Assembly (NCBI GenBank): GCA_016841605.1
Contig: JAENYV010000001.1
Coordinates: forward strand, 165,553-229,552
DNA from: Dethiobacter alkaliphilus
GTDB taxonomy: Bacteria; Bacillota; Dethiobacteria; DTU022; UBA8154
Reading direction: 5' to 3'
DNA length: 64,000 bases
Shown: positions 10,528-36,184 of the stretch, one piece after another
How positions within the stretch are numbered: position 1 is the stretch's first letter
Layout: each line of letters begins with the position of its first letter
The notes under the pieces: generated by a model
Databases searched by the model: none
Seen by the model: the letters and a program-made list of their open reading frames with translations, nothing else
Told to the model about the DNA's origin: nothing
Translations under genes and position numbers: made by a program

Positions 10528-10553
10528 TTAATCAACCAATTGATTAAAAAGGG

Positions 10554-11345: not shown

Positions 11346-11401
11346 AAAAGTTAATTTTACCACATTAAGCCAAATCAGTACAAAGAAAGGGGTACTTTAA
11401 A

Positions 11402-12493: not shown

Positions 12494-12538
12494 AGGAAGG
12501 ACTGTATTCTGTTCAGCTATGCAGAAGGAGGGAAAGAT

Positions 12539-19820: not shown

Positions 19821-20189
19821 CTATTCTCTTTCTATTACACAGTTATAATTATTTCCAAATTTAGACTTATAAATAGCTGACGTAACAGCTGCTATTCCGC
19901 AGAGGACACCCAAAGTAACCATGGAATATACTACCCATGTGCTTCCCCCCGCCACATTTTCTAATTCCTCATCACTTAATTCTCCTTCATTTTGGGCTTG
20001 CCGGACTGCTTCCGTGATGTACGTATAGAAGTCTTCTTCTGTAAACCGGAGGCCCTGTTTTTCTCCTATTTTGATTATTTCTTTGATCACTTCTTCGTTC
20101 ATTTCGCTGTGCAAATTTTTTAGTTGCTCTTGCAGACTTTCATCCCCGGCCACTTTTTCTAATAATAACTTCACATTCTCTACTGCCAT
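19821..20189 (-). CDS. lanA: Nif11-type leader lanthipeptide precursor (LanA)
   Basis: The leader MAVENVKLLLEKVAGDESLQEQLKNL...FTEEDF...ELSDEELENVAGG matches the Nif11/N11P leader architecture and ends in a double-Gly cleavage motif. The 40-aa core STWVVYSMVTLGVLCGIAAVTSAIYKSKFGNNYNCVIERE has 7 Ser/Thr and 2 Cys. AAGGAG RBS. It lies 87 nt downstream of lanM. Confidence 0.8.
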   Translation of the reverse strand: MAVENVKLLLEKVAGDESLQEQLKNLHSEMNEEVIKEIIKIGEKQGLRFTEEDFYTYITEAVRQAQNEGELSDEELENVAGGSTWVVYSMVTLGVLCGIAAVTSAIYKSKFGNNYNCVIERE

Positions 20190-20276
20190 ACTGTTATCAT
20201 CTCCTTGTAAACTGTAAATAGTGTAATTTCTAAAGGTATATACGAAAAAACGTCTATTCTATTACAGGGTCTATTT

Positions 20277-23200
20277 TTACGTTAGAATACTTGGTATACC
20301 CTCTCTGTTGAAAAGGCGCAACAGTTCATATCCTATTCCGGCCAGGCCCTGAAATAAGGAGGGATTAAACAAAGCCCCCGCCTCTTTATCCTCCCCGTGG
20401 AAGACATAATGTCCCAATTTCCTCTTACGCTGCAGCATCCAGCTTAGCCTCTTTCCGGCTTCCGTCAATAGTTCCGGTTGATTCAGCCTGTGGCCGGCTT
20501 CGATCAGCAGTTCAATCCGGCCTCCATTGCCGCAACAGATATGGTCGCTGTAATACGGAGGATAATTTAAGGTAAAGGTAAGGGCATTAGCAATATCCTC
20601 GTGCACTTTTTGTGTATGATGAACGGAAAGAGTGCCCAATCTTGCCAAGCCGATTCCCGGTGCCCCGCTGCACCACCCTGCCATGAAAGCTTTTTCTCCT
20701 TTCTTTAAATTCGGGTTTTTTCGTAAATCCGGCCAGTTGTTTTTCTCCCGGTCATACAAGGTATCTTCGTGATGGAGCGCCTCTTCGGCTGCATGATAAT
20801 ACCTGTCCTCCCCCGTGATTTGATAGAGCCTTAATAAAGAATTGGCAATTCCTGCGGAGCCGTGCCCCATTCCTGTCAAGGGCGCAGTTCCCATGCCCGT
20901 ATCCCAGACCTGCTGACCCGAAGCAGCTCTGACCCGCTGTTTTAAAAGGTGTTCCCCGCATGTTTCGGATAAAGATAATACCTTTGGTGATTTTTCCTGA
21001 GTGTATAGTTGCGTCAGGACAGAAAGGAGGCCTGCACATCCTCCCAATATATCCAGATGAGCGTCTTCCCTAATTTGTCCCTGTTCCAACCTGCTAATTA
21101 TCGTAGAGATATCTTTTTGAAAAGAAGAATCTCCTAAAAAGTTGCCAATCAGAATGAGAGACTTTAATATTCCGGCAAGGCCGTTTCCCAGACCCAGGGG
21201 CAAGCGATGGAGAGGAAGGGGGTTAGAGGGATCATGCAATTGGTTTCTGAATTTTTCTAATGCTTTGAGCGTATCATGTTTAATTTGTTTTTTTCCGGTA
21301 CAGTGATACAGGGCTGCCATAAAAACGGCGATCCCCAAAATTCCATCATATAGCAGCGGACCGATAAGGTCTAAAGCCATCTTCTGCGTTTGGATATCAT
21401 GTTGCCTGACCACCCAGGTAAAATCTCCATCCGCCCCTTCAATCCTCCGCTCCATAATATGGCGATAAATGTTTAGGGCTTCTTCCAACAGAGTTTCGTT
21501 ATCTATGGGGAGAATATCTTCTACTTTTGTGGATAGTATACGATCTCCACCTGCTGCCTCTTCCCCATGGGAGGTGACTTCATGCATAGATAAGGATGAA
21601 AGGATTAAGTTCATTTGCAGCTTTTTATCTTGGGGGTTCATTCCTTTAAGCAATTTCTGCGCTCTGTCTGTGGCGCTTTGCCAAAAATATTGACCGTATA
21701 AATAACCCCTATGATCCTGTACTGATAGGTCGCCGGCATCACCGAAGAAAACCGGAATATCCCTTTGTTCCAGTGCATCTCTTTCAGAAAGATATATCTT
21801 CCAGAGTTCTTTTAATTTGGCTGCAGGGGCAGATAATAGATAAGCACTGCCCATCCTTTCCAGTTCAAAGGAATAGTCAAGCCCGGTCCGGAGGTAAGCC
21901 GGGTGTGTCGTATGATGCAATAGATCCGCATAGATCTGTGTGGATCTGATCAGAAAGCGAAACCGGCAGTCCTGAAACTTGCGGAAAGGGGAAGCTTCGA
22001 GGAGTGTGTCTCTATGTTGAAGCAGGAAATCATAGATCGTCGCAAAACCCTGGAGAATCTCTTCCCGATAGCGGCTGCTTTGCTGCTTTTCTCCTTGATA
22101 CAGGGGAAGATTTTTCATTCTGTCATTATTAGCGGTCAATGCTCCGATATCTTGCGTATTCCCATTTCCGTCCATCCGCCAAACAGGTAAAAGCCCTATC
22201 CGGAGGACGGAATCACCAAGCATATTCAGGGCCTTCTGTATACCGTCCAAACCCTGTTCAGCTTCAGTTAGCTGAAAAGGCCTTACCCGGTGAAGCAAAA
22301 GCGTTTCCAGGTCGATCAAAACAGGATGGGAACCCCAGGCAATGAGGTTTTCACAGTGAAAATCATTTCCTCCCAGGGCATAAACCAACCCCAGCAGAAC
22401 ACCTCCCCGGTAATAAAATTCTCTCACTTCTTTTTCTTCCTCAACAGGTTTTTGCTCGATGTACTCCACCCAGCCGCGGCTTCCTCGATCCAACAGCAAG
22501 GGAGTCCTGAAATAACATGGGAAGCCTTTTTCTCCGAGCCACTCCAGCAGTTCGTCCCAGATCCGATCAATCTGCAGGCTTCTGGGTTTAAAGACTATTT
22601 TTACCCCCGAAGAGAACGTCAAAGCCTTTACACATCTTCCTTGTTGATGGAAATCGGAGAGGTTGTCTTCAACGCGGTTAATTTGTCCTAAAGGCCGGCT
22701 ATTATTAAATATTTTTTCCAGTTTTACCCTGTCTTCTTCCAAAAATTTGACCAATTCCCGGATCGCCTCGGCCCAATTGTTCACTGCTGTTACCAGCAGT
22801 CTGGCGAGAACGGGATACTCCATAAAATGCTCCTTCCATTCTCCCCCCAGCATCTCATTTGTAAAAGCGTGCAGATGCTTTCTATATTCCTTTTCCGTAG
22901 GTTTCATTTCCAGAAAGCAGTAGAGGGGGTTTTTCTTCAGAAAAGACGTGCTGAATTTGTTTAAAAGGGTATTAAAACAGAGTGAACTCAAGGTTTTAAG
23001 CAGCCCGTCATGGAGATGATGCAGGGCGTTGCAGGTGAAGGCGGCTGCCCTGCTTCCCAATCCTGCTGCGAGCTTCTGTGCTGCATAGGCAATGAAAGGG
23101 GAAAAACAGGGAGAAAAGGATAGGGGAGAGAGGGTATATGTTTTATCTTTTTCTTCTTCTTCTTCTTCTTCTTCAAAGCATTGCACAGCCGGTATTTCCG

Positions 23201-23546
23201 ATTCTGACGCCGGAAAAAAGTGAAATATTGTCTCAATTTCTCTCACCCATGCAGGAAGGGGATATTTCGTATTCCATATAACAGCGCCTGTCAGTGTTTC
23301 TGCTTGTTCCAGGGTAATATCCTCTGCTGACAATCTTTTTGCAAAAGCCGCCTTGCCCCCGTTTCCCCCGGCTTTTTGCATCCACCTGTCAATTTGCCGG
23401 ACAGATCCTGCGGCAGATCCTTTGGAAATTGTCATTCCCTGAAGCCGTTCTTTGAGAAAAGCAGCCCTGGCTGCCAGTTCATTCTGTTGTTCTGTTGTTA
23501 AGAACATAATATCAACCAGCCTCTCTCCGGTCCCCTTAAGAGCCAT
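20277..23546 (-). CDS. lanM: Class II lanthipeptide synthetase LanM (dehydratase + LanC-like cyclase)
   Basis: 1089 aa. The N-terminal DUF4135-like region contains VKIVFKPRSLQIDRIWDELLEWL. The C-terminal LanC-like region has GHGSAGIA, the zinc-ligand motifs AGWCSGAPGIGLA and HICCGNGG, and GLAGIGYELL. Confidence 0.9.
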   Translation of the reverse strand: MALKGTGERLVDIMFLTTEQQNELAARAAFLKERLQGMTISKGSAAGSVRQIDRWMQKAGGNGGKAAFAKRLSAEDITLEQAETLTGAVIWNTKYPLPAWVREIETIFHFFPASESEIPAVQCFEEEEEEEEKDKTYTLSPLSFSPCFSPFIAYAAQKLAAGLGSRAAAFTCNALHHLHDGLLKTLSSLCFNTLLNKFSTSFLKKNPLYCFLEMKPTEKEYRKHLHAFTNEMLGGEWKEHFMEYPVLARLLVTAVNNWAEAIRELVKFLEEDRVKLEKIFNNSRPLGQINRVEDNLSDFHQQGRCVKALTFSSGVKIVFKPRSLQIDRIWDELLEWLGEKGFPCYFRTPLLLDRGSRGWVEYIEQKPVEEEKEVREFYYRGGVLLGLVYALGGNDFHCENLIAWGSHPVLIDLETLLLHRVRPFQLTEAEQGLDGIQKALNMLGDSVLRIGLLPVWRMDGNGNTQDIGALTANNDRMKNLPLYQGEKQQSSRYREEILQGFATIYDFLLQHRDTLLEASPFRKFQDCRFRFLIRSTQIYADLLHHTTHPAYLRTGLDYSFELERMGSAYLLSAPAAKLKELWKIYLSERDALEQRDIPVFFGDAGDLSVQDHRGYLYGQYFWQSATDRAQKLLKGMNPQDKKLQMNLILSSLSMHEVTSHGEEAAGGDRILSTKVEDILPIDNETLLEEALNIYRHIMERRIEGADGDFTWVVRQHDIQTQKMALDLIGPLLYDGILGIAVFMAALYHCTGKKQIKHDTLKALEKFRNQLHDPSNPLPLHRLPLGLGNGLAGILKSLILIGNFLGDSSFQKDISTIISRLEQGQIREDAHLDILGGCAGLLSVLTQLYTQEKSPKVLSLSETCGEHLLKQRVRAASGQQVWDTGMGTAPLTGMGHGSAGIANSLLRLYQITGEDRYYHAAEEALHHEDTLYDREKNNWPDLRKNPNLKKGEKAFMAGWCSGAPGIGLARLGTLSVHHTQKVHEDIANALTFTLNYPPYYSDHICCGNGGRIELLIEAGHRLNQPELLTEAGKRLSWMLQRKRKLGHYVFHGEDKEAGALFNPSLFQGLAGIGYELLRLFNREGIPSILT
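23151..23174. repeat. (TTC)8 / (GAA)8 microsatellite inside lanM (encodes Glu8)
   Basis: Eight perfect TTC units on the + strand. They translate as FEEEEEEEEKDK in LanM. Confidence 0.95.
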
Positions 23547-23705
23547 GGGAATGAAGAGTCATGAAGACGGTTCCATTGTCTTCCCTTCGGACCTCTTCTT
23601 CGCTTCGGTGACGCTCGAACCGTCCCCTTGGCTTAAGTCAACCGGTTTAACTAAATATATACGGTGCCGTTATTTACTGCAAACCGACAAGTTGGCAAAA
23701 ACATT

Positions 23706-23730
23706 TTATTCCATATAAATTATGGAATAA
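23706..23730. promoter_or_regulatory. Perfect 10-bp inverted repeat in the lanM / methyltransferase divergent intergenic region (operator candidate)
   Basis: TTATTCCATA-taaat-TATGGAATAA, AT-rich, located 160 nt from the lanM start and 236 nt from the 23966 start. Confidence 0.4.
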
Positions 23731-23965
23731 AAACGAATGGAGAGCAAGGGGCAATTTAACAAAGCTAAACGGATACGGGTCATTTTAGCAGGTCAGGGCG
23801 GTATGTATGGCTCTAAAAAGCAAAATAAATATGCAGCTAATCCTGATCCGAGCTTTTCTACAAAAAATTCATTAAGTTTATCAAAATATGGAGGTTTTTC
23901 TATTTTTAATGTAGAATGGGAAATAAAAGAGAGGTACATTAATTAATTTCAATAATAAGTAAATT

Positions 23966-24781
23966 ATGCTAAATAACGGCAGAATATTGGGGAGACAAAC
24001 CTCAGGAGTGCAACTTGACATGGAAGTGGAGAAAGCATTATGGAAAGTATATGCCACCGTCTATGACGGTATCCTGTTGCGTTTCCTACCATACCTTACA
24101 TTGCTTGGCCGGGTGAAGGAAGCCCTGGGTGTGAAGGATAGGCGGCGAGTGCTTGATGCCGGCTGCGGGACGGGTAATTTAATACAATCTATGATTAAAT
24201 CGTCTGTAAGTATTTCCATAGTCGGTATTGATTTTGACAGAGCCATGCTGGAGCGAGCCAGGGCTAAAATTGGAGTAAACGGCCGAGTTACCCTTCGGAA
24301 AGGAAGTTTGGATCACCCTTTACCCTTTGCGAACGAGGAGTTTGACGGTATTGCCTGTGTCAATGTTCTCTATGCCTTAGCCGACCCCTCCCACTTTATG
24401 AAGGAATGCCGGAGGGTTTTAAAGGCAAAAGGGAAAATGGTCCTGGTCACGCCACCGGAACAACCGAAGATGGGACCTGTTTTTTGGGAACATCTTCAGG
24501 CGCTGGGGCAAAAGCAAAAGTATCCCCTCTTTCGGTTTTTTACCCTCTGCTGTCTGATGCTCCAATTGAGCCCATCCTTAGTGCCTTTCTTGTTCATCAA
24601 CCGTATCATCCAGGGTCAAAGTTCGTTTACCTTTTTCGGCGAAAAGGAGCTTATCTCACTGGTAACCCGATGCGGTTTTTTAATTCAAAAGCTGGAAAAA
24701 GCTTACGGAGGACAGGCCTGGTTTCTTGTTTGCATAAAACCGGCAAATGCTGAGGACGGCATTGCAGGGAAAGGAGCATAA
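23966..24781 (+). CDS. Class I SAM-dependent methyltransferase with hydrophobic C-terminal segment
   Basis: Motif I VLDAGCGTGNL and the post-I acidic residue (VGIDFD). Motif II-like FDGIACVNVLYAL. A late hydrophobic stretch reads FRFFTLCCLMLQLSPSLVPFLFI. Confidence 0.8.
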   Translation: MLNNGRILGRQTSGVQLDMEVEKALWKVYATVYDGILLRFLPYLTLLGRVKEALGVKDRRRVLDAGCGTGNLIQSMIKSSVSISIVGIDFDRAMLERARAKIGVNGRVTLRKGSLDHPLPFANEEFDGIACVNVLYALADPSHFMKECRRVLKAKGKMVLVTPPEQPKMGPVFWEHLQALGQKQKYPLFRFFTLCCLMLQLSPSLVPFLFINRIIQGQSSFTFFGEKELISLVTRCGFLIQKLEKAYGGQAWFLVCIKPANAEDGIAGKGA

Positions 24782-24782
24782 G

Positions 24783-26006
24783 ATGAAAAGCGTGGTCATA
24801 ACGGGGCTTGGGGTAGTAGCACCAAACGGCCTGGGCAAAGAAGCCTACTGGCATGCTCTGGCAAACGGTAAATCGGGGATACGATCCATTAGTAAATTTG
24901 ACCCTTCTCCCTTTCCCTGCCGCATTGCCGGAGAAATCCCGGCAGAATGGTTCGCGGAAAAGGGACTTGCCTCGGGGGGAGAAGAATATTCCTGGAGCAC
25001 AATTTATGCTCTCCAGGCAGCCAGGCTGGCCCTCAAGGATGCCATGCTCAGCTCTGAAGCGATAAAAGACTGCTCCACCGGTGTTTACATGGGGATCAGC
25101 AGCACCGACATGGGAGTTGTACAGGATGAATATGCGGTTTTTCAAAAAAATAAAACAACTTCTGCCGGAGCAATCGCGGCGTCTTTTCCCCATGCACCGG
25201 CAAGTCAACTGGCGAAGGAAATTAACTGTGCGGGAAATGTGTTTACCGTTTCCACAGGGTGTTCTTCCGGGCTGAACAGCCTTATTCTGGCAGCCGAGAG
25301 TATTATACACGGCGAAGCGGAAGTTGTGCTGGCCGGAGGGGTGGATGCCCCCCTAACACCCCTGCTCCTGGCAGGTTTTTGTGCCACAGGTTTACTCCCC
25401 ACCAGCTTTAATGATACTCCGGAAACAGCCAGCCGACCTTTTGATGCAAAGCGACAGGGGGGAGTACTCTCGGAGGGTGCCGGGGTCCTGGTCTTGGAAG
25501 AGGAGGAGGGTGCCCGGCGGCGTGGCGCCCCCCTTTATGCCAGGATAAGCGGGTGGGGAGCGACCAACACCTTTTCTCCAACCGGTTTGCGCGCTTCCTC
25601 CAATGAGTGTATTATTCAGGCTTTGCATAGCGCGGGCCTTAAACCGGAACAAATTGATTATATCAGTGCCCATTCCCCCGGGGACCCTGTCATGGACCGG
25701 GTGGAAACCCGGGTTATTAAGGAAGTGTGGGGTAAATATGCCTACAATATTCCGGTAAGTTCCGTCAAATCCATGATCGGCAACCCCCTGGCGGCATCAG
25801 GACCGTTGCAGACGATCGCAACGGTCCTGGCACTGCAAAACCAGTTTATTCCGCCGACCGTGAATTACCGTTATCCCGATCACCGCTGCGACCTCGATTA
25901 TGTCCCGAATACGGGGCGGGTTGCCAGGGTTGCCAGGGCCTTAATCAATGTACAGGGGTTTGGCGGTGGGATTACAGCTTTGGTTATCAGCAAACCTTCA
26001 ATATAA
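24783..26006 (+). CDS. Stand-alone beta-ketoacyl synthase (FabF/KAS-II fold) with atypical Cys-His-Asn triad
   Basis: The ATG after AAGGAGCATAAG is preferred over the listed 24747. Sequence runs MKSVVITGLGVVAPNG.. with active-site Cys in FTVSTGCSSGLNS and first His in ISAHSPGD. The position of the second His (KSMxGH in FabF) reads KSMIGNPLAASG (codon AAC 25782-25784). Confidence 0.8.
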   Translation: MKSVVITGLGVVAPNGLGKEAYWHALANGKSGIRSISKFDPSPFPCRIAGEIPAEWFAEKGLASGGEEYSWSTIYALQAARLALKDAMLSSEAIKDCSTGVYMGISSTDMGVVQDEYAVFQKNKTTSAGAIAASFPHAPASQLAKEINCAGNVFTVSTGCSSGLNSLILAAESIIHGEAEVVLAGGVDAPLTPLLLAGFCATGLLPTSFNDTPETASRPFDAKRQGGVLSEGAGVLVLEEEEGARRRGAPLYARISGWGATNTFSPTGLRASSNECIIQALHSAGLKPEQIDYISAHSPGDPVMDRVETRVIKEVWGKYAYNIPVSSVKSMIGNPLAASGPLQTIATVLALQNQFIPPTVNYRYPDHRCDLDYVPNTGRVARVARALINVQGFGGGITALVISKPSI

Positions 26007-26028
26007 TTTTGGGAGCGGGTTATATCTT

Positions 26029-28500
26029 TTGACAAATCCAAACATCTGGCTATTATCTATTATAGCTTTGGCGAACTTAACGCTGGGTTTGCTGGTTCTC
26101 CTAAAAAACCGCCGGGGGACGTTGAACCGCCTTTTATTCAGGTTGAGTATCAGCGCCGCTCTCTGGAGCCTGACGGTTTTGTTCATCGTGTCACATCATG
26201 ATTATCCCATAGTCCTGTTTTGGGTCCGGGCATCCCATGCGGCAGCTATTATTATCCCCTGGCATATCCTTCTTATAGCTTTTGCCGTAGCCGGAATTAA
26301 TCCCCGGCAGCAAAGATGGGCCGGGTTTGTCAGTCTATGCTGTTTTCTCCTCGTTTTCCTCTCCTTTACTCCGGCTATTATCCGCGGCCTGGATTTACCT
26401 TTGGAAAACAAAGATATAGTATTGGGATTTCTTTACCCTTTTTATTCGCTTTTTTTCCTGGGCGTAATACTGGCTGCTCTGGGGAAGTTATTCCGGCAGC
26501 TTCGCTCTGCCAGGGGACTGTTGCGTTTGCAGCTGCGTTACCTTTTCTGGGGAATTGCCATATCACTGGTGCTCGGCAGCTTATCCAATATGTTGTTGCC
26601 TTTAATGGGGATTACAGCAGTAGACCTGCGACCCTTCGGTCCCACTTTCAGCATCATCATGATTGGAGCTATCAGCTATGCTATTATTAAATACCGGCTG
26701 ATGGACATCCGCCTTGTTGTCCGTAACGGCCTGGCCATCGTCATGACTGCCCTTATTTTTAGCGTAGCTTTTGGGCTGGTTTTTTCTTTGCTCCAGTGGG
26801 TGGAACTGCTTGCGACCACAAACTTTGTCCTGGTGGTCGTCGTATTTATTGTTGCCTTTTTCTTTGGACCTCTAAGGATTAAAGTGCAGAAGATCGTTGA
26901 TAAATACTTCTTCCGGGGAGCCTATGACTACCATGCTTCTTTGTTAAAAATCGGCAAAGATATGGTTTCTTTGCTCAGACTGGAGAAGCTTATTACTGTT
27001 ATTTCCCAAAACTTGTTTGAAAAAATGATGCTGGAAAACTGTTCTTTTTTTAGACAGAGTAAAGAAGGGGAGTTTGTTTTATCTGCCTTTTATTGTTCCA
27101 ATGAAGGAAATGTCTTTTCCCAGGAAGCGGTTATTTCCCGGGAAAACCCCCTTGTACAGTTTTTAAATGAAAAGGCGGAACTCTTTTTTATTACGGATAT
27201 CCCTGACATTGCGCCGCCGGAAGACAGAGAATCCCTATCCCGGGCCATGCAGGATTTGCGTGGTGAAGTTGCTATTCCCATCATCCTGGATAATAAATTG
27301 GAAGGTATCTTTCTGCTTGGTCCCAAGCTTTCCGGTGAACCGTATTCCATGAAGGACGGGAATATCCTGACAGCCCTGACCGCGCAGCTAACTGTAGCAT
27401 GGCGAAATGCTCAGCTCTATCAGGAGGTTCTGGCTGTTAAACAGCACCTGGAAAATGTTTTGGAAAATATGGGTAATGCTTTAATCGCTGTTAATTGTGA
27501 GGGTCTGGTAACACTGTTTAACAGTGCTGCAGAGCATTTTACCGGCTTCAAGGCGGAAAATATTTTAGGAAGAAAAGCAGAGGACATTTTACCCGGCGGC
27601 CTCAGCAAGCTTTTTATGCAGGCCCTTGCGGAACAACAGGATCTAAAAGAAGTGGAGCAGGTTTTTTCCGATAACGAAAGGGAAATGCACTTTTCCTGCA
27701 GCATTACGCTGGTTGGGTCTGCTGAATCCCGGGAAAAAGGGGCAATTATGGTACTTAGCGATGTAACTCGAATTAAAGAGCTGGAAAAAGAAAAAGCTCA
27801 GGCACTCAGGCTGGCTTCCCTGGGTGAAGTTGCTGCGGGCATGGCTCACGAAATTAAAAACCCCCTGGTTTCCATTAAAACTTTTGCCGAGTTATTACCC
27901 GAGAAATACAATGACCATGAGTTTCGTCATACTTTTTCTCACATTGTCATTCAAGAGATCGAACGGATCAATACGCTTATTTTACGGCTGCTGGATTTAA
28001 CGGCAGATCCGTCTCTCATCTTTCAAAAAACAAAGCTCCAAGACCTCATGGATGAAGTTCTTTTTCTCTTGTCTCCATACCTGGAGACGTTTAAGATCTC
28101 CCTGATGAAGGAATATTATTCCAGGATCCCTCCTGTAAATGTTGATCGCAGCCATATTAAGCAGGCTCTCTTCAACATTTGCCTAAACGGCGTACAGGCC
28201 ATGGGGGAAGGCGGAAATTTAAATATTCGGCTTATGCCCGTTTGGCAGGAAAACCTTAATCAGACCGGGCCGGACGATAAAGAGGAAGTAAAGATCATCA
28301 TCAAGGATACAGGGCCGGGTATTCCCGGAGAGATAGCACAGAGGATTTTTGATCCCTTCTTTACCACCAAGGCCGATGGTATGGGGATGGGTCTTGCCCT
28401 CAGTCATAAAATTATCTCAGCTCACGGAGGAGCCATACAGTTCAGCAGTAATGGTGCAGGAACCATGTTTGAAATATCCATTCCCGTATTGTCGGAATGA
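26029..28500 (+). CDS. Sensor histidine kinase: N-terminal 7TM-type membrane domain - GAF-like - PAS - HisKA - HATPase_c
   Basis: The start is uncertain. TTG 26029 after GGGAG is preferred over the listed 25948, which would overlap the KS gene by 59 nt. About 8 hydrophobic helices. H-box [16 protein letters not shown]-box [12 protein letters not shown]1 IKDTGPGIP and G2 GMGMGLALS. Confidence 0.85.
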
Positions 28501-28504
28501 AAGG

Positions 28505-30502
28505 ATGATCAGCTTGAAGTTAATTATTTTAATTTCAGACATAAACAGCACCGGTCAGATCCTAAAGTCGTATGTTCCTCAGGATTTTGTCCTCCTGGAA
28601 GGCAGCGCGGACAACAGGGGAGCTGAGTTGCTTAAAAATATTTCCTCAGGTATTGTCCTTGTGGATACAAACGTTGCCGGAGCCTTGTCGTGGATGAAAG
28701 AGGTATACCCCTTCAAACCGGACCTTACATACATCGGCATCACCGGCGATGAAAGGAAAACAAACGACCTCTTTCACCTTTTTTATGAGATACTTTCTCC
28801 TCCCTTTAATCCTGCACAGGTCCAAAACCTGCTTAATCGCTCCTGGGAGAGGACTGTTTTACTGATGCAAAAAAATATGGAGCATGGTATCAGCGTGGAG
28901 AGGAGAAGCCGTAACTATGCTGCCGGCAGCGCTTACAGCCACAAAGAGCATATTCTGTGTAAGTTTTCGCGGGCTCTCGGAACAGACTTTAACTGCCGGC
29001 ATCTAATAGATCTTTTTCTCAGCATGCTGGAAGAATTGGTGCCTGTGAATAAGATATCGCTTTTACTGGCCGGCAGCAAGGATGGAGTTTATGAGATCGC
29101 CGCTCAAAGGGGGCTTGATTTGCAAATTGCTTCCAAACTGCGCTTCCATGCCAATGGGGGGTTAATTGCCTGGTTGTCAAGGGAGGGACGTATCCTCTAT
29201 TCCGATGGACGGCCCGCACAAGGGTTATTTGTTCAGGAGGCACTCCAGGAAATGAGCCTCCTCCACTCTCTGATCTCTATTCCTCTGCTGGCGCGGGGAC
29301 GCCTGGTGGGAGCACTAAATCTCGGCCCCAAGGTAACCGGCTATCTTTATAGCGATGATGAACTGGAGATCCTTTATATGCTGTCGGGAAACGTAGCTAC
29401 AGCCCTGCTGGACATAGATTTGCACCATCAGTTGCGCTATCAGAAACTTTATACCGAAAATATCCTTTTACGTATGAATAGCGGAGTTATTGGAATCGAC
29501 ATGCATGATAAAATTACAACTTTTAACGAACGAGCGGCAGAGATTTTGAAAATGAACTCAAGCGAGGTCATGCAGAAAGACTTACGCTGTTTACCCAGCC
29601 CTCTTGGCGATATGCTTTATCGGACCCGTTCCAGCGGAGAGGGTTGCGACCGGGAAAAACTTGAGCTGGTCAAAAATCGGCTTCCTCTGGAAATAAGTAC
29701 CTATCAGCTGGTTGACGAGGGGGATAATATTCTGGGCAGCGTGATGATTTTTGATAATATTTCCGAGCGGCGCCAGTTGGAACTGGAAAGACGCAAAGCC
29801 GACCAGCTTGATGTTCTCAATCGCTTTGTCGGCCAGCTTGCCCATGAAATTAAAAATCCCATGGTTGCCATTTTAACCTTTGCCGAGTTGCTACCGGAGA
29901 AATACAGTGATGAATCTTTCCGGGAACAGTTTGCCGGGACCGTGCAAAAAGAGGTTAAACGTTTAAATGATCTTGTGGAGCAACTTATTGATTTTTCCAC
30001 CCCCCTTTCTTATAAATACAGTGTGGAGGATATTCATGAAATTGTTGAACAGGGTCTACTCCTCGTACAGGAACAGGACAGTACGGTTGAAGTTACTATT
30101 AAATTTACCCGTCATGAAAAGAAATTGCTTGTAAGGGCCGACCGGACACTTCTTTCCAGGGCTTTCGCCTATCTGATCCATCTTTTTGGTCACACCCTGT
30201 CACGGGGCAACGTTTTATTTATTCAAGTAGAGCTTCGCCCTTCTCTTTTTGCGGAAGGCGGCATCAGCCTTTCCTTCCGGTCCCCTGAGGCAAAGTTGGA
30301 AAAAGAACACGTGGAGAAGATTTTTGACCCCCTTTTATTTCCACAGGAGCAGAGCATCTCGTTGGGACTGCCCGTTAGCAGGAAGATTGTAGAAGACCAT
30401 GGCGGAAGGATGAAAGCGTCTTTAAGCCGGGATGGATATCTGATCATTGATGTAGAGCTTCCTATCACAGATAACAAAGCGCAGGTGAAATCTCTTGACT
30501 AA
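28505..30502 (+). CDS. Cytoplasmic kinase-like protein: pseudo-receiver - GAF - PAS - HisKA - degenerate HATPase_c
   Basis: The ATG at 28505, 5 nt after the upstream stop, is preferred over the listed 28349. The H-box is intact (VGQLAHEIKNPMVAI). The N-box Asn is absent (AFAYLIHLFGHTL) and the DxGxG G1 box is absent (LSFRSPEAKLEKEHVEKIFDP). The N-terminal REC-like fold lacks the conserved Lys (EILSPPF). Confidence 0.75.
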   Translation: MISLKLIILISDINSTGQILKSYVPQDFVLLEGSADNRGAELLKNISSGIVLVDTNVAGALSWMKEVYPFKPDLTYIGITGDERKTNDLFHLFYEILSPPFNPAQVQNLLNRSWERTVLLMQKNMEHGISVERRSRNYAAGSAYSHKEHILCKFSRALGTDFNCRHLIDLFLSMLEELVPVNKISLLLAGSKDGVYEIAAQRGLDLQIASKLRFHANGGLIAWLSREGRILYSDGRPAQGLFVQEALQEMSLLHSLISIPLLARGRLVGALNLGPKVTGYLYSDDELEILYMLSGNVATALLDIDLHHQLRYQKLYTENILLRMNSGVIGIDMHDKITTFNERAAEILKMNSSEVMQKDLRCLPSPLGDMLYRTRSSGEGCDREKLELVKNRLPLEISTYQLVDEGDNILGSVMIFDNISERRQLELERRKADQLDVLNRFVGQLAHEIKNPMVAILTFAELLPEKYSDESFREQFAGTVQKEVKRLNDLVEQLIDFSTPLSYKYSVEDIHEIVEQGLLLVQEQDSTVEVTIKFTRHEKKLLVRADRTLLSRAFAYLIHLFGHTLSRGNVLFIQVELRPSLFAEGGISLSFRSPEAKLEKEHVEKIFDPLLFPQEQSISLGLPVSRKIVEDHGGRMKASLSRDGYLIIDVELPITDNKAQVKSLD

Positions 30503-31568
30503 TGATTCATGCATACTCATTGTAGACGATGAACTTGGACCGCGTGAAGCGCTACGTATGATTTTACGGGACAATTACCGGGTTACCGTGGCGGCTTCCG
30601 GAAAAGAAGCACTGGATTGTTTTGCCGGAAAGGAATACGACCTGGTTATCCTGGATATTAGAATGCCTGATATAAATGGCGTTGATCTTCTGGCGGAGAT
30701 AAAAAAGAAAGCACCGGAGACCGAGGTTGTAATGATAACTGCTTATGCTTCCGTGGAAACGGCTACAAAAGCCTTGCGCTACGGTGCCCTTGATTACCTG
30801 ATTAAACCTTTTGACCGTGCTTCAGTGCTGAATGTTGTGGAGAAAGGCCTGTCGCGCCGCAGCAATACGCGCGGCATGAGGGATAAACTGAAAGAACTTC
30901 AGCTCGCCAATAAAACTCTTGAGAAAGAAGTGGAGTATGCTTATAAAAACATTCAAGGCCATTATTCGGAAACCGTATCATCCCTGGTGGCGGCAGTAGA
31001 TGCCAAGGATGCTTATACCAAGGGACATCAGGAAAGAATCGCCAGGTTTGCACAGCTTATCGGCCAAAAAATCGGTTGCTCCGCAGAAGAAACGGAGTTA
31101 ATCAAGCAGGCCGCTATCCTTCATGATATAGGCAAAATTGGTGTTCCGGAAGCAATTCTCATGAAACAGGACGCTTTAACCGACGAAGAATATGAGATCA
31201 TAAAAAAACACCCTGTGATCGGGGCAAAAATTCTTTCTCCCGTGCAGTTCTTAAAAGAAGTGGTTCCGCTGGTTTTCTTTCATCATGAAAGGTTTGATGG
31301 AACAGGATACCCCAGGGGTCTTAAGGGATCCCAAATACCCCTGAGTGCCCGGGTCATTTGTATTGCCGACGCAGTGGATGCCATGCTTTCCCAACGGCCA
31401 TATTCCCGTGCAAAAACAGTAGAAAAAGTAAAGGAAGAGTTGCTGCGCTGCTCGGGAACGCAATTTGATCCCCAGTTGGTGGATGTTATCATCAAAAACG
31501 ACCTTCTTTCTGTTTACCTTCTTTTAGTAGAGACCCATGAAGCTTCGTCTTCATCATCGGACGGATGA
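30495..31568 (+). CDS. Response regulator with HD-GYP domain (RpfG-type c-di-GMP phosphodiesterase)
   Basis: REC features: ILIVDDE, LVILDIRMPDING and LIKPF. HD-GYP features: GHQERIA, ILHDIGKIGVPEAIL and HHERFDGTGYPRGL. The TTG start overlaps the upstream stop. Confidence 0.9.
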   Translation: MTNDSCILIVDDELGPREALRMILRDNYRVTVAASGKEALDCFAGKEYDLVILDIRMPDINGVDLLAEIKKKAPETEVVMITAYASVETATKALRYGALDYLIKPFDRASVLNVVEKGLSRRSNTRGMRDKLKELQLANKTLEKEVEYAYKNIQGHYSETVSSLVAAVDAKDAYTKGHQERIARFAQLIGQKIGCSAEETELIKQAAILHDIGKIGVPEAILMKQDALTDEEYEIIKKHPVIGAKILSPVQFLKEVVPLVFFHHERFDGTGYPRGLKGSQIPLSARVICIADAVDAMLSQRPYSRAKTVEKVKEELLRCSGTQFDPQLVDVIIKNDLLSVYLLLVETHEASSSSSDG

Positions 31569-31661
31569 AAATAGAAGAACATTAGAAGCCGAGGTTTGCT
31601 TTCAAAAGAGCGGTTTTTTTGCTATAATGTACCACAATGAGCGGTGTCGGGAGGATGACAC

Positions 31662-32828
31662 ATGGTTAAAAATTTTTCCAATGAATTTAAAATAGCTCTC
31701 CAGCTGGAAGGGGAAAAGTCTCTTTCCGGAAATGACCTTTTTACTCTCTTAGAAAATATCATGCTTTCCGGTTCGATCAGCAGTGCAGCGGCGCGGATGG
31801 GTGCCTCTTACCGCTATTGCTGGGGGCTGATCCAGGGGGCGGAAAAAACTCTGGGTCTTACATTGGTAGATAAGCAGGTAGGCGGGGTAGCCGGTGGGGG
31901 AACTTCACTGACACCTCAGGGAAAAGAGTTGCTTGAGCAGTATAAGGCTTTTAAACAGGAAGTTGACAGTCAGTTAAAACACTTCCTGGCCCGGACCGGT
32001 AGTACGCCCTCTCAAGATGTTTTTGTCTCAGCCGGACAGCCCGAAAAAGCGGATGAGAGGACTGCTGTGCGGCACCTCTTACTGGCCAGTACTATGGAAG
32101 CAGTGGAAACCGGGCTGATGGATCTTTTGGAAGAGGCTTTTTTCCATACCAGCAGTATCCTGGTCAGGCATATCTCCATCGGCAGCGGACGAGCTTTGCA
32201 GATTGCCAGGGAAGGCCGCGTCGATGTGGTGCTTTCTCATGCTCCGGAACTGGAGAAGTCCTTTATGGACGAGGGCTGGGGAGTAGAAATGATCCCCATC
32301 ATGGCCAATGATTTTGTTATTGCCGGCCCTCTATCCGACCCGGTGGGGGTATCTGAACTGTCCGGTGCGGTAGAGGCTTTCAGAAAGATCGCTTCCTCCC
32401 AGGTGCCCTTTATTAGCCGCGGCGACAGTTCGGGGACCCACCAGCGGGAAAAGGAAATTTGGAAACAGGCGGGGATAATTCCCGAAGGACAGTGGTATAC
32501 CAAATCTTCGGGAATGGTGGGAAATCTGGGAGCCTTACATCTGGCCAGGGAAAAAGAGGGCTATACTCTTGTTGACCGGGCGACCTTTCTTATTTCCCGT
32601 GAGGAAAAAATGATTATTTTTCCTCCTGGAGAAAAAGCAAATGATCCGGCCTGGACCCTGGAAAATATTTTTGTCCTAACCATAGTCAACCCGGAGCGTG
32701 TTCCCGGAGTCAAACTCGCTGATGCGCGGCTTTTTGCCCGCTGGCTGCTGGAAAGGGAAGGGCAGGAGCTTATTTCCTCTTTCGGCCGTGAAACTTTTGG
32801 AACCCCTCTTTTTTCCAGAGTTACCTGA
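31662..32828 (+). CDS. ModE-type winged-helix regulator fused to a tungstate/anion PBP-like domain
   Basis: The N-terminus LLENIMLSGSISSAAARMGASYRYCWGLIQGAEKTLGLTLVDKQVGGVAGGGTSLTPQGKELL is the ModE/LysR-like HTH_1 domain. The C-terminal ~250 aa (..ISRGDSSGTHQREKEIW..) resembles TupA/PBP_like_2 binding proteins. No signal peptide. Confidence 0.7.
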   Translation: MVKNFSNEFKIALQLEGEKSLSGNDLFTLLENIMLSGSISSAAARMGASYRYCWGLIQGAEKTLGLTLVDKQVGGVAGGGTSLTPQGKELLEQYKAFKQEVDSQLKHFLARTGSTPSQDVFVSAGQPEKADERTAVRHLLLASTMEAVETGLMDLLEEAFFHTSSILVRHISIGSGRALQIAREGRVDVVLSHAPELEKSFMDEGWGVEMIPIMANDFVIAGPLSDPVGVSELSGAVEAFRKIASSQVPFISRGDSSGTHQREKEIWKQAGIIPEGQWYTKSSGMVGNLGALHLAREKEGYTLVDRATFLISREEKMIIFPPGEKANDPAWTLENIFVLTIVNPERVPGVKLADARLFARWLLEREGQELISSFGRETFGTPLFSRVT

Positions 32829-32931: not shown

Positions 32932-33095
32932 AGCACATGGAAGGTTCATCGCGGTGGACACTACTTGAAGGAGATGAAACAAACAGAAAAAAGAAAAATT
33001 AAGGGGCAGGCTGAAATTCTATCTTTTTGTACCGGTATATGCTGTCGTTATGTCAAAATAGGCATAATGCCTGCTTAATAAAGGAGGAGGAGACA

Positions 33096-34253
33096 TTGAA
33101 AAAGTTTATCCAATTACTACTTATTGCAGTAATGATTTTATCAATCTTTATGGGAACCTGGGGTTGTACGGCCCAGCCGGAGGAAACTGCCCCGGCGACG
33201 TCCGGTGAGGAGATATCGGCAACTCCTGAGGAGACTACACCCGCGACACGGGAGGTAGTGGACCTCGCGGAGAGAACCGTGACCGTTCCTGCGGAACCAA
33301 AGAAAGTAGCAACAATGCAGGGCCCAACGTATGAGATGGTTTTTATGCTGGGAGCCAAAGACCGGATAGGTCTTGTCAGGGATGACCATCCAACTGCTTA
33401 TCCTCTCGCCCTGTTGACCAATCCTGACCTTGCGAACTATCCGACCATTGCCGGTGTCGGGCCCCAGAGCCCGGTTAATGTGGAAGAATTTATTAATAAA
33501 GGGGTTGACCTGGTTATCTACTGGAACATTGAACAGGAACTCACGAAGTTTGATAATGCCGGCATCCCCGCGCTTGTGATAAACTGGTCGACTTTTCAGC
33601 CGACTAATATTGAGGAAGCTCTTATGGACTCCAAGAAACAGATTTCATTCCTTGCGGACGTGCTGGGCGGCAAGGCGCCCGAGCGCTATGCAGATTGGGA
33701 AAGCTATCTTGACGAGACCGTTGAATTTATCCGGTCCCGTACGGCACAAATTCCGGAAGATGAACGCCCTGTTGTCTACTGGGGCAATAGTTGGGGTCCC
33801 AATATCCTTTCCACATGGCCTCTTACGCCGAAACAATTTGAAGTGGAACTTTGCGGCGGCAAGCTTGTCAGCGTAGAAAAGGGCGGCCAGTTTCCGGAGA
33901 CAACCAAAGAACAGTTGCTCGCCTGGGAGCCTGAAGTAATTATTGTTGATAATCACGGAGGGAGTCCGGAACAAGTTATTGAAGAGCTTAAGAGCAGCGC
34001 AGACTGGGCTTCATTGCCCGCGGTCAAGAATGACCGTCTCTATCGCATACCTGCCGGCGTCTTCTTCCTGGATAAAGGAACCAGCCGTACTGTCTATTAC
34101 TACTGGCTGGCAAAACAACTGCATCCCGATCTGTTCGAAGATGTTGACTTGATTAAGGAATTAAAGTACTACTTCAAGACTTTCTATGATTATGAGCTGA
34201 CCACGGAGGAGGGCGAAAAAGTGCTCGCGGGCTGGGCGGAAACAAGAAAATAA
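33096..34253 (+). CDS. ABC transporter substrate-binding lipoprotein, FecB/BtuF (cluster A/type III) family
   Basis: TTG start 6 nt after AAGGAGGAGGAG, in frame with the listed 33027. Signal peptide plus Cys (MGTWGCTAQ) and an E/T/P-rich linker. The Peripla_BP_2-like body contains PEVIIVDN. Confidence 0.75.
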   Translation: MKKFIQLLLIAVMILSIFMGTWGCTAQPEETAPATSGEEISATPEETTPATREVVDLAERTVTVPAEPKKVATMQGPTYEMVFMLGAKDRIGLVRDDHPTAYPLALLTNPDLANYPTIAGVGPQSPVNVEEFINKGVDLVIYWNIEQELTKFDNAGIPALVINWSTFQPTNIEEALMDSKKQISFLADVLGGKAPERYADWESYLDETVEFIRSRTAQIPEDERPVVYWGNSWGPNILSTWPLTPKQFEVELCGGKLVSVEKGGQFPETTKEQLLAWEPEVIIVDNHGGSPEQVIEELKSSADWASLPAVKNDRLYRIPAGVFFLDKGTSRTVYYYWLAKQLHPDLFEDVDLIKELKYYFKTFYDYELTTEEGEKVLAGWAETRK

Positions 34254-34277
34254 TCGGATAAAATCGGAGGGAAGGTC

Positions 34278-35366
34278 ATGCGCACTACAACGAATACGAT
34301 AAAGCCAACGCCGGTCCAAAAACAGAAGAACCTGAACGAACAAACGGAGACGGAGAAACTTTCCTGCACTAAAATGGCATTGCTCATCGGCCTTCCCCTG
34401 CTTTTCTTCTTTATTTCTCTATTTTTGGGTCGTCACTTCATAGACCCGCTTACCGTTTTAAAGATCCTGGGGCAAAAGTTGCTCTCCTTACCTCTAGAGA
34501 CGACATGGACCGATACCATGGAAACGGTTGTCCTGCGCATCAGAATGCCCCGTGCCATCATGGCGGGTGCGGTCGGTGCCGGTCTTTCCATTTCCGGCGC
34601 CGCGTTTCAGGGGATGTTCCATAATCCTTTGGTGAGCCCCTTTGTCCTAGGCGTTTCTTCCGGAGCCGGCTTTGGCGCTGCACTGGCTATAGTTATGGAG
34701 GGCTCCATGCTGATGATTCAGCTGTTGGCATTTTTATTCGGTATAATCGCCGTCACCATCACCTATTGTACAAGCCGTATCTACAAAACAACCCCCATTT
34801 TGATGCTCGTCCTCTCCGGTATTGTTGTCTCCGCGCTCTTTCAGTCTCTGCTTTCTTTGCTCAAGTATACGGCAGATACGGAAGACAAGCTTCCTGCCAT
34901 TGTCTTCTGGTTAATGGGGAGTATGGGCAGTGTTAGCCTGGAGAATTTGCTCCCGGCTGTTGCCTCAATTGCCGCGGGCTGTCTTGGTCTGCTTCTTATC
35001 CGCTGGCGTTTCAACGTACTCTCTATGGGGGACCAGGAAGCCAGGTCTATGGGGATGAATACGGAATTGCTCAAGGGTATTATTATCGTCTGTACCACCA
35101 TTATCTCTTCCGTAGTAGTTGCTTTTTGCGGTATTATCGGCTGGGTGGGGCTGGTTATTCCCCACTTATGCCGTATGCTGGTAGGTCCCGATCACCGCGT
35201 GCTCATGCCCACTACTCTCTGTGTGGGAGCTGCCTATCTGATTTTTGTTGACAATATAGCCCGCATCATATCGCCGGCCGAGGTGCCTCTGGGTATTCTG
35301 ACCGCGCTGGTGGGCGCCCCGTTTTTTATGATTATGCTCAGGAAGACGAGAGGAGGCTGGGGATAA
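34278..35366 (+). CDS. FecCD/BtuC-family iron-chelate/corrinoid-type ABC permease
   Basis: A polytopic 362-aa protein. RMPRAIMAGAVGAGLSISGAAFQG and GILTALVGAPFFMIML are hallmark FecCD segments. Confidence 0.85.
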   Translation: MRTTTNTIKPTPVQKQKNLNEQTETEKLSCTKMALLIGLPLLFFFISLFLGRHFIDPLTVLKILGQKLLSLPLETTWTDTMETVVLRIRMPRAIMAGAVGAGLSISGAAFQGMFHNPLVSPFVLGVSSGAGFGAALAIVMEGSMLMIQLLAFLFGIIAVTITYCTSRIYKTTPILMLVLSGIVVSALFQSLLSLLKYTADTEDKLPAIVFWLMGSMGSVSLENLLPAVASIAAGCLGLLLIRWRFNVLSMGDQEARSMGMNTELLKGIIIVCTTIISSVVVAFCGIIGWVGLVIPHLCRMLVGPDHRVLMPTTLCVGAAYLIFVDNIARIISPAEVPLGILTALVGAPFFMIMLRKTRGGWG

Positions 35367-36184
35367 TGACGGCAAAGGTATCGGTTAGCTCTGCCTGCTT
35401 CAGCTATGGTGAGAAGGAAGTATGGAGGGATATCAATCTGAACGTGGAAAAAGGGGAAACCATCTGCCTGCTTGGTCCAAACGGCTGTGGTAAAACCACC
35501 CTTCTCAACTGCATACACGGGGACCTTGCCTTAAAAAGCGGAGATATCTATATTGACGGGCGCAATATCAAAACAATGGCGGTTACGGAGATTGCACGCA
35601 GCGTGGGTTACGTCTTTCAGGAGCACAGAGCGCCGTTTCCGTACAGTTCTCTTGAAGTGGTGAGAATGGGGCGTGCTCCTCATCTGGGTCTTTTCCAGGC
35701 TCCCTCCCGCGATGATACGGAGCTGGCTAGAAGCATCATGGAGGAGATGGGTATCGGTTACCTTGCGGCAAAACGCTATACCAACATATCGGGCGGGGAA
35801 CGTCAGCTTGTGCTTATCGCGCGGACGCTTTGTCAGCAACCGGAGATGATTTTGTTTGATGAACCGACCTCTCATCTTGATTTTAAGAACCAGGCACTTG
35901 TTCTCCGGACGATTAGCCGTCTGACCCGGAAAGGTCTCACCATTATTATGACAAGTCATTTTCCCAATCACGCCTGGCTGCTCAGCAGCAGGGTGGCCAT
36001 GATGGACAATAACGGCTTTGTGGCTCTGGGACCGGCGGAAGAGGTTATGACCGAAGAAAACCTGAGTGAAACTTACGGGGTGAGGGTTAAAGTCTACGAG
36101 GCCAAGGACGACCACAAGACTGTCAACTTCTGTACTCCGGAGTTCGTTCCGACGTCAAAGGGAGAGGGAGTCGATGATGATTAA
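35366..36184 (+). CDS. ABC ATP-binding protein (FecE/BtuD-type)
   Basis: Walker A GPNGCGKTT, signature ISGGERQLVLIART and Walker B ILFDEPTSHLD. One-nt overlap with the permease gene. Confidence 0.85.
   Translation: MTAKVSVSSACFSYGEKEVWRDINLNVEKGETICLLGPNGCGKTTLLNCIHGDLALKSGDIYIDGRNIKTMAVTEIARSVGYVFQEHRAPFPYSSLEVVRMGRAPHLGLFQAPSRDDTELARSIMEEMGIGYLAAKRYTNISGGERQLVLIARTLCQQPEMILFDEPTSHLDFKNQALVLRTISRLTRKGLTIIMTSHFPNHAWLLSSRVAMMDNNGFVALGPAEEVMTEENLSETYGVRVKVYEAKDDHKTVNFCTPEFVPTSKGEGVDDD

Follow-up and report, generated by a model that had tools for sequence, protein, structure and literature searches.

In Xanthomonas the diffusible signal factor (DSF) is made by RpfF and RpfB and sensed by the membrane kinase RpfC, which signals to the HD-GYP regulator RpfG and thereby lowers cyclic di-GMP (c-di-GMP). 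The known lipid-type signals, namely acyl-homoserine lactones (AHL), DSF, CAI-1/LAI-1, 3-OH-PAME and the photopyrones, come to our knowledge almost all from cultured Proteobacteria. The phcBSRQ operon of Ralstonia encodes the methyltransferase PhcB, which produces a fatty acid methyl ester (methyl 3-hydroxymyristate or methyl 3-hydroxypalmitate), the membrane kinase PhcS, the receiver and kinase protein PhcR, and the receiver PhcQ (PMC8578825). In Vibrio (CqsA/CqsS) and Legionella (LqsA/LqsS/LqsR), the gene of an alpha-hydroxyketone synthase adjoins that of a multi-pass kinase (PMC3376566, PMC3285556). Stand-alone ketosynthases make signals from fatty-acyl precursors in Photorhabdus, where PpyS/PluR uses photopyrones and DarB/PauR dialkylresorcinols (PMC4578411). 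This paper concerns a locus of five genes in Dethiobacter alkaliphilus, found at 23966-31568 of a 64,000-nucleotide stretch of contig JAENYV010000001.1 (the window). They encode an S-adenosylmethionine (SAM)-dependent methyltransferase (MT), a ketosynthase-like enzyme (KS), a membrane sensor histidine kinase (HK1), a soluble pseudokinase (HK2) and a response regulator (RR). With belief and doubt evenly balanced, we consider it plausible from the sequences that the five genes form one cassette which makes and senses a hydrophobic small molecule and, in doing so, lowers c-di-GMP.

The locus and the spacer before it comprise:

23547 to 23965, no strand: presumed promoter region, an AT-rich divergent spacer of 419 nt between lanM (minus strand) and the operon (plus strand)
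23966 to 24781, plus strand: MT, class I SAM-dependent methyltransferase (Pfam Methyltransf_11/25/31; longest open reading frame 271 aa)
24783 to 26006, plus strand: KS, FabF-fold ketosynthase-like enzyme of 407 aa (Pfam ketoacyl-synt N and C domains)
26029 to 28500, plus strand: HK1, membrane sensor histidine kinase of about 823 aa (Pfam HisKA_7TM, GAF, PAS, HisKA, HATPase_c)
28505 to 30502, plus strand: HK2, predicted soluble pseudokinase of 665 aa (Pfam GAF, PAS, HisKA; HATPase_c match weak)
30495 to 31568, plus strand: RR, response regulator of 357 aa joining a receiver (REC) to an HD-GYP domain (Pfam Response_reg, 1.3e-30; HD_5, 6.3e-36)

Pfam searches and a reading of the DNA uphold the layout given in a preliminary description of the locus, which had been made from the letters alone: five co-directional genes, the domain calls MT, KS, HK1, HK2 and RR for the five plus-strand open reading frames (ORFs) of 23966-31568, and three very tight junctions. 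The TAA of MT (24779-24781) is separated by a single nucleotide from the ATG of KS (24783), and a ribosome-binding site, aaaggag, precedes KS. The TGA of HK1 (28498-28500) lies 4 nt before the ATG of HK2 (28505), and the end of HK2 (30502) overlaps the TTG start of RR (30495) by 8 nt. The ORF of HK1 is open from an ATG at 25948 (25948-28500), a start that would overlap KS by 59 nt. The most likely start is the TTG at 26029 because the orthologues are about 824 aa long; the gap between KS and HK1 is then 22 nt. A promoter and terminator scan revealed no convincing internal terminator in the cassette. For the window at large that scan was uninformative, with counts close to shuffle expectation, and the sigma-70-like matches in the spacer are weak. 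No Rfam family, hence no c-di-GMP riboswitch, was detected in the window at gathering thresholds. It had also been claimed that no acyl carrier protein (ACP), acyltransferase (AT) or ketoreductase (KR) partner lies nearby, and neither the 419-nt spacer before MT nor the larger ORFs of the window yielded one.

Two ORFs at the spacer, 23452-23718 and 23737-23946, were considered as ACPs and dismissed after inspection by eye. The latter, on the plus strand, is a 69-aa ORF just 5' of MT in the AT-rich spacer and has no recognisable features. The MT/KS region (24001-26000) has a GC content of 0.518, versus 0.444 upstream and 0.451 downstream.

Synteny in relatives had been set beforehand as a test of the proposal, and the five genes do travel together in different genomic contexts. 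When homologues were traced to their contigs, the order MT-KS-HK1-HK2-RR was found kept, between unrelated flanks, at KS identities of 84% (a Dethiobacter sp. metagenome-assembled genome, MAG), 74, 56, 49 and 47%; a five-gene order with unrelated flanks is likewise listed at 72% KS identity. All five genes are present in Dethiobacter sp., Syntrophomonadaceae, Ca. Desulfopertinax cowenii and further MAGs of Bacillota. One Dethiobacter-type contig is missing MT and keeps the other four genes, with a PAS-GGDEF-HD-GYP protein encoded just upstream.

A protein of this kind was seen in several Bacillota lineages (loci L004, L006, L017 and L018), where it measures about 858 aa, carries PAS, GGDEF and HD-GYP domains and lies directly 5' of MT/KS; a SelA match there looks spurious. 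With it, a further c-di-GMP enzyme is linked physically to the cassette.

Within the cassette, KS and HK1 form the most persistent unit. One genome per GTDB species was scanned with an alignment of the KS clade as query, and the 80 resulting loci were annotated by tblastn with the five window proteins and by ORF clustering. In about 38 of the 80, KS is followed directly by a full-length 7TM kinase on the same strand, membrane domain included. These pairs are distributed over Bacillota, Clostridia, Omnitrophota, Ratteibacteria, Verrucomicrobiota, Rokubacteria, Tectomicrobia, Armatimonadota, Desulfarculaceae and Acidobacteriota, and the pair is present in Nitrospirota too. Conversely, metagenome contigs were scanned with an alignment of the HK1 membrane domain only, a query that avoids the bias of seeding with KS. 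This gave 78 loci carrying the domain at 25-45% identity, 7 of them without room upstream. Among the 71 assessable loci a KS ends within -200 to +400 nt of the kinase start in 55, and lies elsewhere in the locus in 3 more. The KS-kinase pair is thus reciprocally linked over more than ten bacterial phyla. Its conservation from phylum to phylum places the arrangement far outside what chance would give. The KS-kinase core is older and wider than the five-gene set. In the open-access literature we found no description of a FabF-type ketosynthase coupled to a HisKA_7TM kinase, which is weak evidence of novelty.

In most loci a second kinase and a response regulator follow the pair. Orthologues of RR close the cassette in 18 loci, including those of Omnitrophota and Nitrospiraceae, and MT orthologues stand directly 5' of KS in 12. 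The output of the regulator differs by lineage: HD-GYP in Omnitrophota, Nitrospiraceae and others, and elsewhere sigma-54 activators or REC-kinase hybrids.

KS is not FabF, and it falls under the curated cut-off of the fabF equivalog TIGR03150 (335.8 against 493.75 bits). By Pfam it is a complete ketosynthase of the KAS I/II type. Its AlphaFold2 model is complete and confident (pLDDT 91, pTM 0.93) and shows the thiolase-fold, dimer-type KAS I/II architecture; the top Foldseek match of that model is B. subtilis FabF (4ls8; TM-score 0.95, 36% identity), and identity to FabF ranges from 34 to 38%. Alignment to the FabF proteins of T. thermophilus and B. subtilis (triad C163/H303/H340 in E. coli numbering) places the retained nucleophile, Cys160, in STGCSSG. 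The first catalytic His is also retained, in AHSPGD versus AHGTST of FabF, whereas the second is replaced by Asn (KSMIGNPL versus KSMIGHLL). Judged from the alignment, this is a FabH-like Cys-His-Asn triad on a FabF fold. In FabH, as in KAS III and chalcone synthase triads, Asn polarises the thioester. By analogy, an Asn or Gln at the second position of KS could still do so.

The kinase-linked KSs form one contiguous group in a neighbour-joining tree, apart from housekeeping FabFs and from the ketosynthase/chain length factor (KS/CLF) pairs. Genuine FabFs, which the scan recovered as well, are encoded in plsX-fabH-fabD-fabG-acpP clusters and display AHGTST and KSMxGH. Throughout the kinase-linked clade the Cys, Lys329 and an Asp/Glu network are invariant. 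The first His position is occupied by H, C, N, S or Y and the second by N, S, Q or H; KSs with Cys at the first position still carry the whole five-gene cassette, and the full Cys-His-His is kept by Rokubacterial and a few other members. Whichever reading of the locus is right, this clade, in which the His positions drift around an invariant Cys, represents a branch of condensing-enzyme chemistry yet to be explored.

The MT start is placed at the ATG at 24020 in the source annotation (253 aa; P0133, 100%/100%), where the orthologues begin too. A hydrophobic tail had been ascribed to the protein. The hydrophobic stretch is real, but it lies inside the protein, as a conserved insert of about 30 aa (residues ~188-215 of the 271-aa ORF) set between core strands, with the motif W.F..GQ....P....F.IN..I. 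The insert suggests membrane association or a lipophilic substrate. The family is small (68 proteins at E<=1e-10), and MT reaches the cut-off of no NCBIfam model, the best being the DVU_1556 family at 66 versus 155 bits. Its best relative in the PDB is the lanthipeptide C-terminal methyltransferase LahSB (6uak, E 1e-12), a match that is limited to the generic Rossmann core (residues 20-162) and barely exceeds those to phospholipid and ubiquinone methyltransferases.

The 7TM-type input domain previously assigned to HK1 is confirmed by Pfam (HisKA_7TM). Hydropathy analysis indicates about nine hydrophobic segments joined by loops of at most 25 aa, with no extracytoplasmic sensor domain; by our reasoning, the ligand must therefore be membrane-borne. 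The membrane domain carries the conserved motifs NR, RLQxRY, YRLMDI and YDY. The catalytic boxes H, N, G1 and G2 are all intact.

HK2 is a paralogue of HK1 from the end of the GAF domain through the PAS, dimerisation and histidine phosphotransfer (DHp) and catalytic ATP-binding (CA) domains. Its H-box, AHEIKNP, is intact and, together with the alpha-1 helix, nearly identical to that of HK1. Its ATP-binding domain is devoid of the N-box Asn, of G1 (DxGxG replaced by FRSPEAKL) and of G2. On these motifs HK2 is predicted to be a kinase with a dead ATP site, and this His-intact, ATP-site-dead state is common to all Bacillota orthologues. The N-terminal 118 residues, noted earlier as REC-like, do adopt a true receiver fold, as seen when a profile of 14 orthologues was compared with the PDB (HupR, E 5e-13; NtrC and CheY weaker). 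This receiver is degenerate: the Asp is retained and the conserved Lys is lost in Bacillota. Among the distant orthologues are some with G1 and G2 still in place, a genuine REC and, in addition, an HTH_8 tail. Whichever reading is right, a conserved His-intact, ATP-dead HK2 offers a clean case for the roles of pseudokinases in two-component signalling.

RR appears fully equipped. Its receiver is canonical, with residues of the DD11-12, D54, T82 and K104 type visible, and its HD-GYP motifs are complete (HD at 210, HHE at 263, GYP at 271). It is predicted to be a c-di-GMP phosphodiesterase. The best NCBIfam match is the NosR-family phosphodiesterase, at 231 bits versus a cut-off of 400, which places RR outside that subfamily.

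Enzymes that recur around the KS-kinase pair bear on what the pair might produce. In Bacillota cassettes a class I MT adjoins KS, and other class I MT families stand beside the pair in loci L138 and L167. A membrane carboxyl-methyltransferase of the ICMT/PEMT type is found in L133, accompanied by a FadL/TodX outer-membrane channel and an NAD-dependent reductase, all three between KS and kinase. NAD-dependent reductases also neighbour the pair in L138 and L150, an ACP and a FabA-like dehydratase in L167, a FAD oxidase of the BBE type in Verrucomicrobia, and a B12-binding radical SAM enzyme in Omnitrophota, Ratteibacteria and Armatimonadota. The most elaborate arrangement is that of the Nitrospiraceae MAG SURF_23 (L064, 9986-17996), which reads KS (Cys-Tyr-His), ACP, NAD_binding_4 reductase, 7TM kinase, second kinase and REC-HD-GYP. 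From its gene content it resembles a minimal polyketide synthase-like unit with reductive release inside a signalling operon. The repeated presence of non-homologous MTs, reductases, carrier proteins and a channel for hydrophobic compounds fits a diversifying small lipid product.

Outside the Bacillota, MT homologues of about 34% identity occur in the order MT-X-7TM kinase, with KS replaced by another protein, X. In L171 (6001-9412) X is a 201-aa protein of the T_hemolysin family, PF12261, which we take to belong to a clan of GNAT and autoinducer-synthase-like proteins; in L172 (2906-5257) it is an unannotated protein of 264 aa. These variants suggest that synthases may be interchangeable in one slot.

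What has been observed is the gene content, the motifs, the operon-like gene junctions, the synteny kept in relatives and the reciprocal link of KS with the kinase; all of the biochemical steps that follow are inferred from these. KS would load an acyl chain from the cellular pool of acyl-ACP or acyl-CoA onto Cys160 and most likely run a single Claisen-type condensation, with its His and Asn serving as a FabH-like oxyanion/decarboxylation pair. The membrane-associating MT would then methylate the KS product; the simplest guess would be an O-methyl ester formed on the carboxyl of a 3-oxo- or 3-hydroxy-acyl product. This lipid would partition into the membrane and be read there by the loop-less HK1 sensor domain with its approximately nine transmembrane segments. 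HK1 would autophosphorylate and act as phosphodonor to the REC domain of RR, whose hydrolysis of c-di-GMP would change as a result. HK2, which shares an HK1-like DHp domain and H-box and would not bind ATP, may act on the same RR as a phosphatase, phospho-sink or heterodimer partner, adding cytoplasmic input through its GAF/PAS and receiver-like domains. The scheme is compatible with a lipid that acts between cells (quorum sensing) and with one that acts on the producing cell only.

Several observations weigh against this scheme. The drift of the catalytic His positions is unexpected for one conserved decarboxylative chemistry, and the many lineages without the first His speak against a uniform decarboxylative mechanism and would allow KS to transfer, or merely bind, an acyl group. 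The window holds no dedicated ACP, acyltransferase, thioesterase or exporter for the cassette, and substrate supply and product release are left unexplained. Some cassettes (Dethiobacteria loci L014 and L015) have no tailoring gene at all, and the best PDB relative of MT is a lanthipeptide methyltransferase. Lastly, product, ligand and phosphotransfer are predictions for every member of the family. The earlier idea of a self-made, lipid-like signal and its perception thus stands in part: the linkage and the recurring enzymes fit it, whereas the His drift of KS keeps a role in acyl sensing open.

Such a role is the essence of the alternative that survives best. KS might be an accessory co-sensor, acylated on Cys160 by acyl-ACP or acyl-CoA, or binding them, and reporting the status of fatty acids or of lipid synthesis to HK1 by contact, with no free signal. 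LiaF, YycHI and BceAB act on their kinases by direct contact. Consistent with a co-sensor, KS is always the gene just before the kinase; its His positions drift around an invariant acyl-accepting Cys, as in non-elongating domains of the KS0 type; most cassettes, that of the window included, have no ACP, thioesterase or exporter; and some have no tailoring enzyme. However, a pure sensor would have no need of the proteins that keep appearing around the pair: MTs of five unrelated types, reductases, an oxidase and a dedicated ACP, together with a FadL channel. The unrelated proteins that fill the KS slot in the MT-X-kinase variants fit interchangeable synthases better, and the Rokubacterial and other KSs keep the full Cys-His-His triad. 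On balance we find a co-sensor unlikely. If true, a thiolase-fold protein as a kinase accessory would still be new.

Less likely still, in our estimation, is a loop of membrane-lipid homeostasis, whereby KS, with or without MT, alters the bulk lipid, HK1 monitors membrane thickness, fluidity or packing in the manner of DesK, and c-di-GMP couples the outcome to lifestyle. In known systems the length and unsaturation of acyl chains are governed by enzymes of the FabF type. The intramembrane character of HK1 (about nine transmembrane segments, no periplasmic domain) would suit a monitor of this sort, as would the membrane-type insert of MT and the phospholipid and ICMT-type MTs of the variants. 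Yet the output in the window is an HD-GYP enzyme and not a transcription factor able to regulate lipid genes, KS lies far under the FabF equivalog cut-off and has an altered triad, and a conserved bulk lipid would not come with accessory enzymes that vary so much. In addition, the FadL channel, the thioester-reductase-like protein and the ACP of the variants point to a discrete, released product.

The divergent lanthipeptide genes provide another possible explanation: MT and KS would tailor the class II lanthipeptide, by methylation, lipidation or both, and the two-component genes would serve its regulation or immunity. A LanM (TIGR03897, 781 bits) and a Nif11-leader precursor do lie 420 nt upstream on the opposite strand, LahSB is the best solved relative of MT, and a LanB-N-like gene adjoins the verrucomicrobial cassettes. 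However, neither LanM nor the precursor is found near any of the examined Bacillota relatives that keep MT-KS-HK1-HK2-RR, the likeness to LahSB covers the generic Rossmann core only, and the window has no GNAT, acyl-transfer enzyme or ACP to attach a lipid to the peptide. The LahSB match was discarded on synteny as a link between MT and the lanthipeptide genes. We hold this explanation to be very improbable. The preliminary suggestion that the lanthipeptide genes might be an output or a co-regulated trait likewise has no support, as they are not conserved neighbours in any examined Bacillota relative.

That KS is an ordinary fabF paralogue beside two-component genes by coincidence, as its top structural and sequence match to FabF (TM-score 0.95, 34-38% identity) might suggest, is effectively refuted by synteny, namely the reciprocal KS-kinase adjacency across phyla. 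The score of 336 bits versus the 494-bit fabF cut-off, the Cys-His-Asn triad and the residence of genuine FabFs in fab clusters speak against it too.

The reading as a cassette that makes and senses its own lipid can be extended, tentatively and with doubt slightly the stronger, to the KS-kinase pair as a whole. KS and the HisKA_7TM kinase would be the synthase and receptor of an unrecognised, phylum-spanning family of lipid autoinducers, with tailoring by methylation, reduction or oxidation diversifying the signal and c-di-GMP turnover as the output in Dethiobacter-like Bacillota. If so, a FabF-derived enzyme and a 7TM kinase, components unlike those of the known lipid-type signals, make up a synthase-receptor pair that is widespread in mostly uncultured phyla and in anaerobic Bacillota, and lipid metabolism would be tied to c-di-GMP in Gram-positive anaerobes. 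With so few genes (KS, optionally MT, HK1 and RR), the cassette is a testable way in to both the molecule and its receptor.

The remainder of the window contains several other gene sets. The class II lanthipeptide pair occupies 19821-23546 on the minus strand and consists of a LanM of 1089 aa (TIGR03897, 781 bits) and the Nif11-leader precursor (122 aa), whose double-glycine site is VAGG and whose core reads STWVVYSMVTLGVLCGIAAVTSAIYKSKFGNNYNCVIERE. Next to the pair there is no LanT/C39 transporter; a 165-aa membrane protein at 19198-19695 (minus strand) has no family match. In three verrucomicrobial loci (L028, L038, L058), a protein of 809-841 aa with Lant_dehydr_N only (LanB-N/PEARL-like) and another of about 265 aa are encoded on the minus strand some 1.5-4 kb 5' of KS. 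The former is a second, independent enzyme of the type that acts on ribosomally synthesised and post-translationally modified peptides (RiPPs) beside a cassette, and may be there by coincidence.

Downstream of RR, at 31662-32828 (plus strand), an N-terminal helix-turn-helix of the ModE type is fused to a TupA/PBP-like tungstate/molybdate-binding domain, with a promoter-like site at 31601-31628. Further on come ABC-transporter genes (33027-36184) and another small methyltransferase of class I (36223-36813). A surface protein of 1700 aa is encoded at 44465-49567 (plus strand) and bears four Shr-like haem-binding HID domains, He_PIG, CHB_HEX_C/Fn3_assoc and three SLH repeats. Together with the secreted proteins of 52907-54655 and 55644-57122, which have Oxidored_molyb-like and Cu_amine_oxidN1 domains, it makes up an unusual cell-surface set. 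At the other end, a tellurite-resistance-like cluster (StiP/PELOTA_1, YceG_bac, TelA) opens the set found at 111-6246 (plus strand) and 7352-14197, which continues with a GAF-sigma-54 activator (minus strand) beside a 3-hydroxyacyl-CoA dehydrogenase, an old-yellow-enzyme-type reductase and an acyl-CoA ligase. These acyl-CoA metabolism genes lie about 10 kb upstream of the cassette and are not conserved with it.

How, then, does the cassette relate to described systems? HK1 was considered as the PrsK kinase of the PEP-CTERM/XrtA system and rejected: TIGR02916 gives 111.9 bits versus 300 and covers the kinase core only, and the partner here is an HD-GYP protein. Sigma-54 regulators, as in PrsK/PrsR, do follow the KS-kinase pair in some other lineages. 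With FabF, KS shares its fold, length, Cys, first His, Lys and GFGG loop. It differs by the Asn at the second His, by AHSPGD, by the absence of acpP, fabD, fabG and fabH from the window, and by its membership of a separate, kinase-linked clade. PpyS and DarB provide a precedent for a stand-alone thiolase-fold condensing enzyme as signal maker. Unlike KS, they are FabH/KAS III-like, their receptors are cytoplasmic LuxR solos, and they are not encoded in a two-component operon.

CqsA and LqsA resemble KS in that a synthase is encoded beside a multi-pass kinase that, within the membrane, senses a hydrophobic acyl-derived product. Their synthase, however, is a pyridoxal phosphate-dependent acyl-CoA transferase and not a thiolase-fold ketosynthase, and those systems have no methyltransferase, pseudokinase or HD-GYP output. 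Rpf/DSF was the model first proposed for the locus, and the comparison holds for the output: a membrane kinase appears to feed an RpfG-type REC-HD-GYP regulator, and the concept of a fatty-acid-derived signal is common to both. It does not hold for the synthase or the sensor. By Pfam, the five genes include no RpfF of the crotonase/ECH family and no RpfB ligase. HK1 is not a hybrid kinase; it is without the REC and HPt of RpfC, and its membrane domain is from another family. The pseudokinase of the cassette is a further difference.

By analogy of architecture, the closest described operon is phcBSRQ of Ralstonia and not Rpf. The cassette opens with a class I MT, a candidate counterpart of PhcB, and by analogy with phcBSRQ (PMC8578825) its operon includes a polytopic membrane histidine kinase. 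The receiver fold of HK2, followed by HisKA and a degenerate HATPase, matches the layout of PhcR, and a receiver protein comes last in each. The differences are substantial. The cassette has an extra, FabF-derived KS; the sensor part of HK1 is built of HisKA_7TM and GAF/PAS; the ATP site of HK2 is dead and its receiver degenerate; and the last gene encodes a REC-HD-GYP protein and not a bare receiver of the PhcQ type, with no homologue of the LysR-type PhcA in the cassette. Its hosts are Bacillota and many uncultured phyla, as against Betaproteobacteria. Taken together, these comparisons suggest a cognate cassette of signal synthase and sensor kinase, probably built from unprecedented parts and unusually broad in its distribution over poorly studied phyla.

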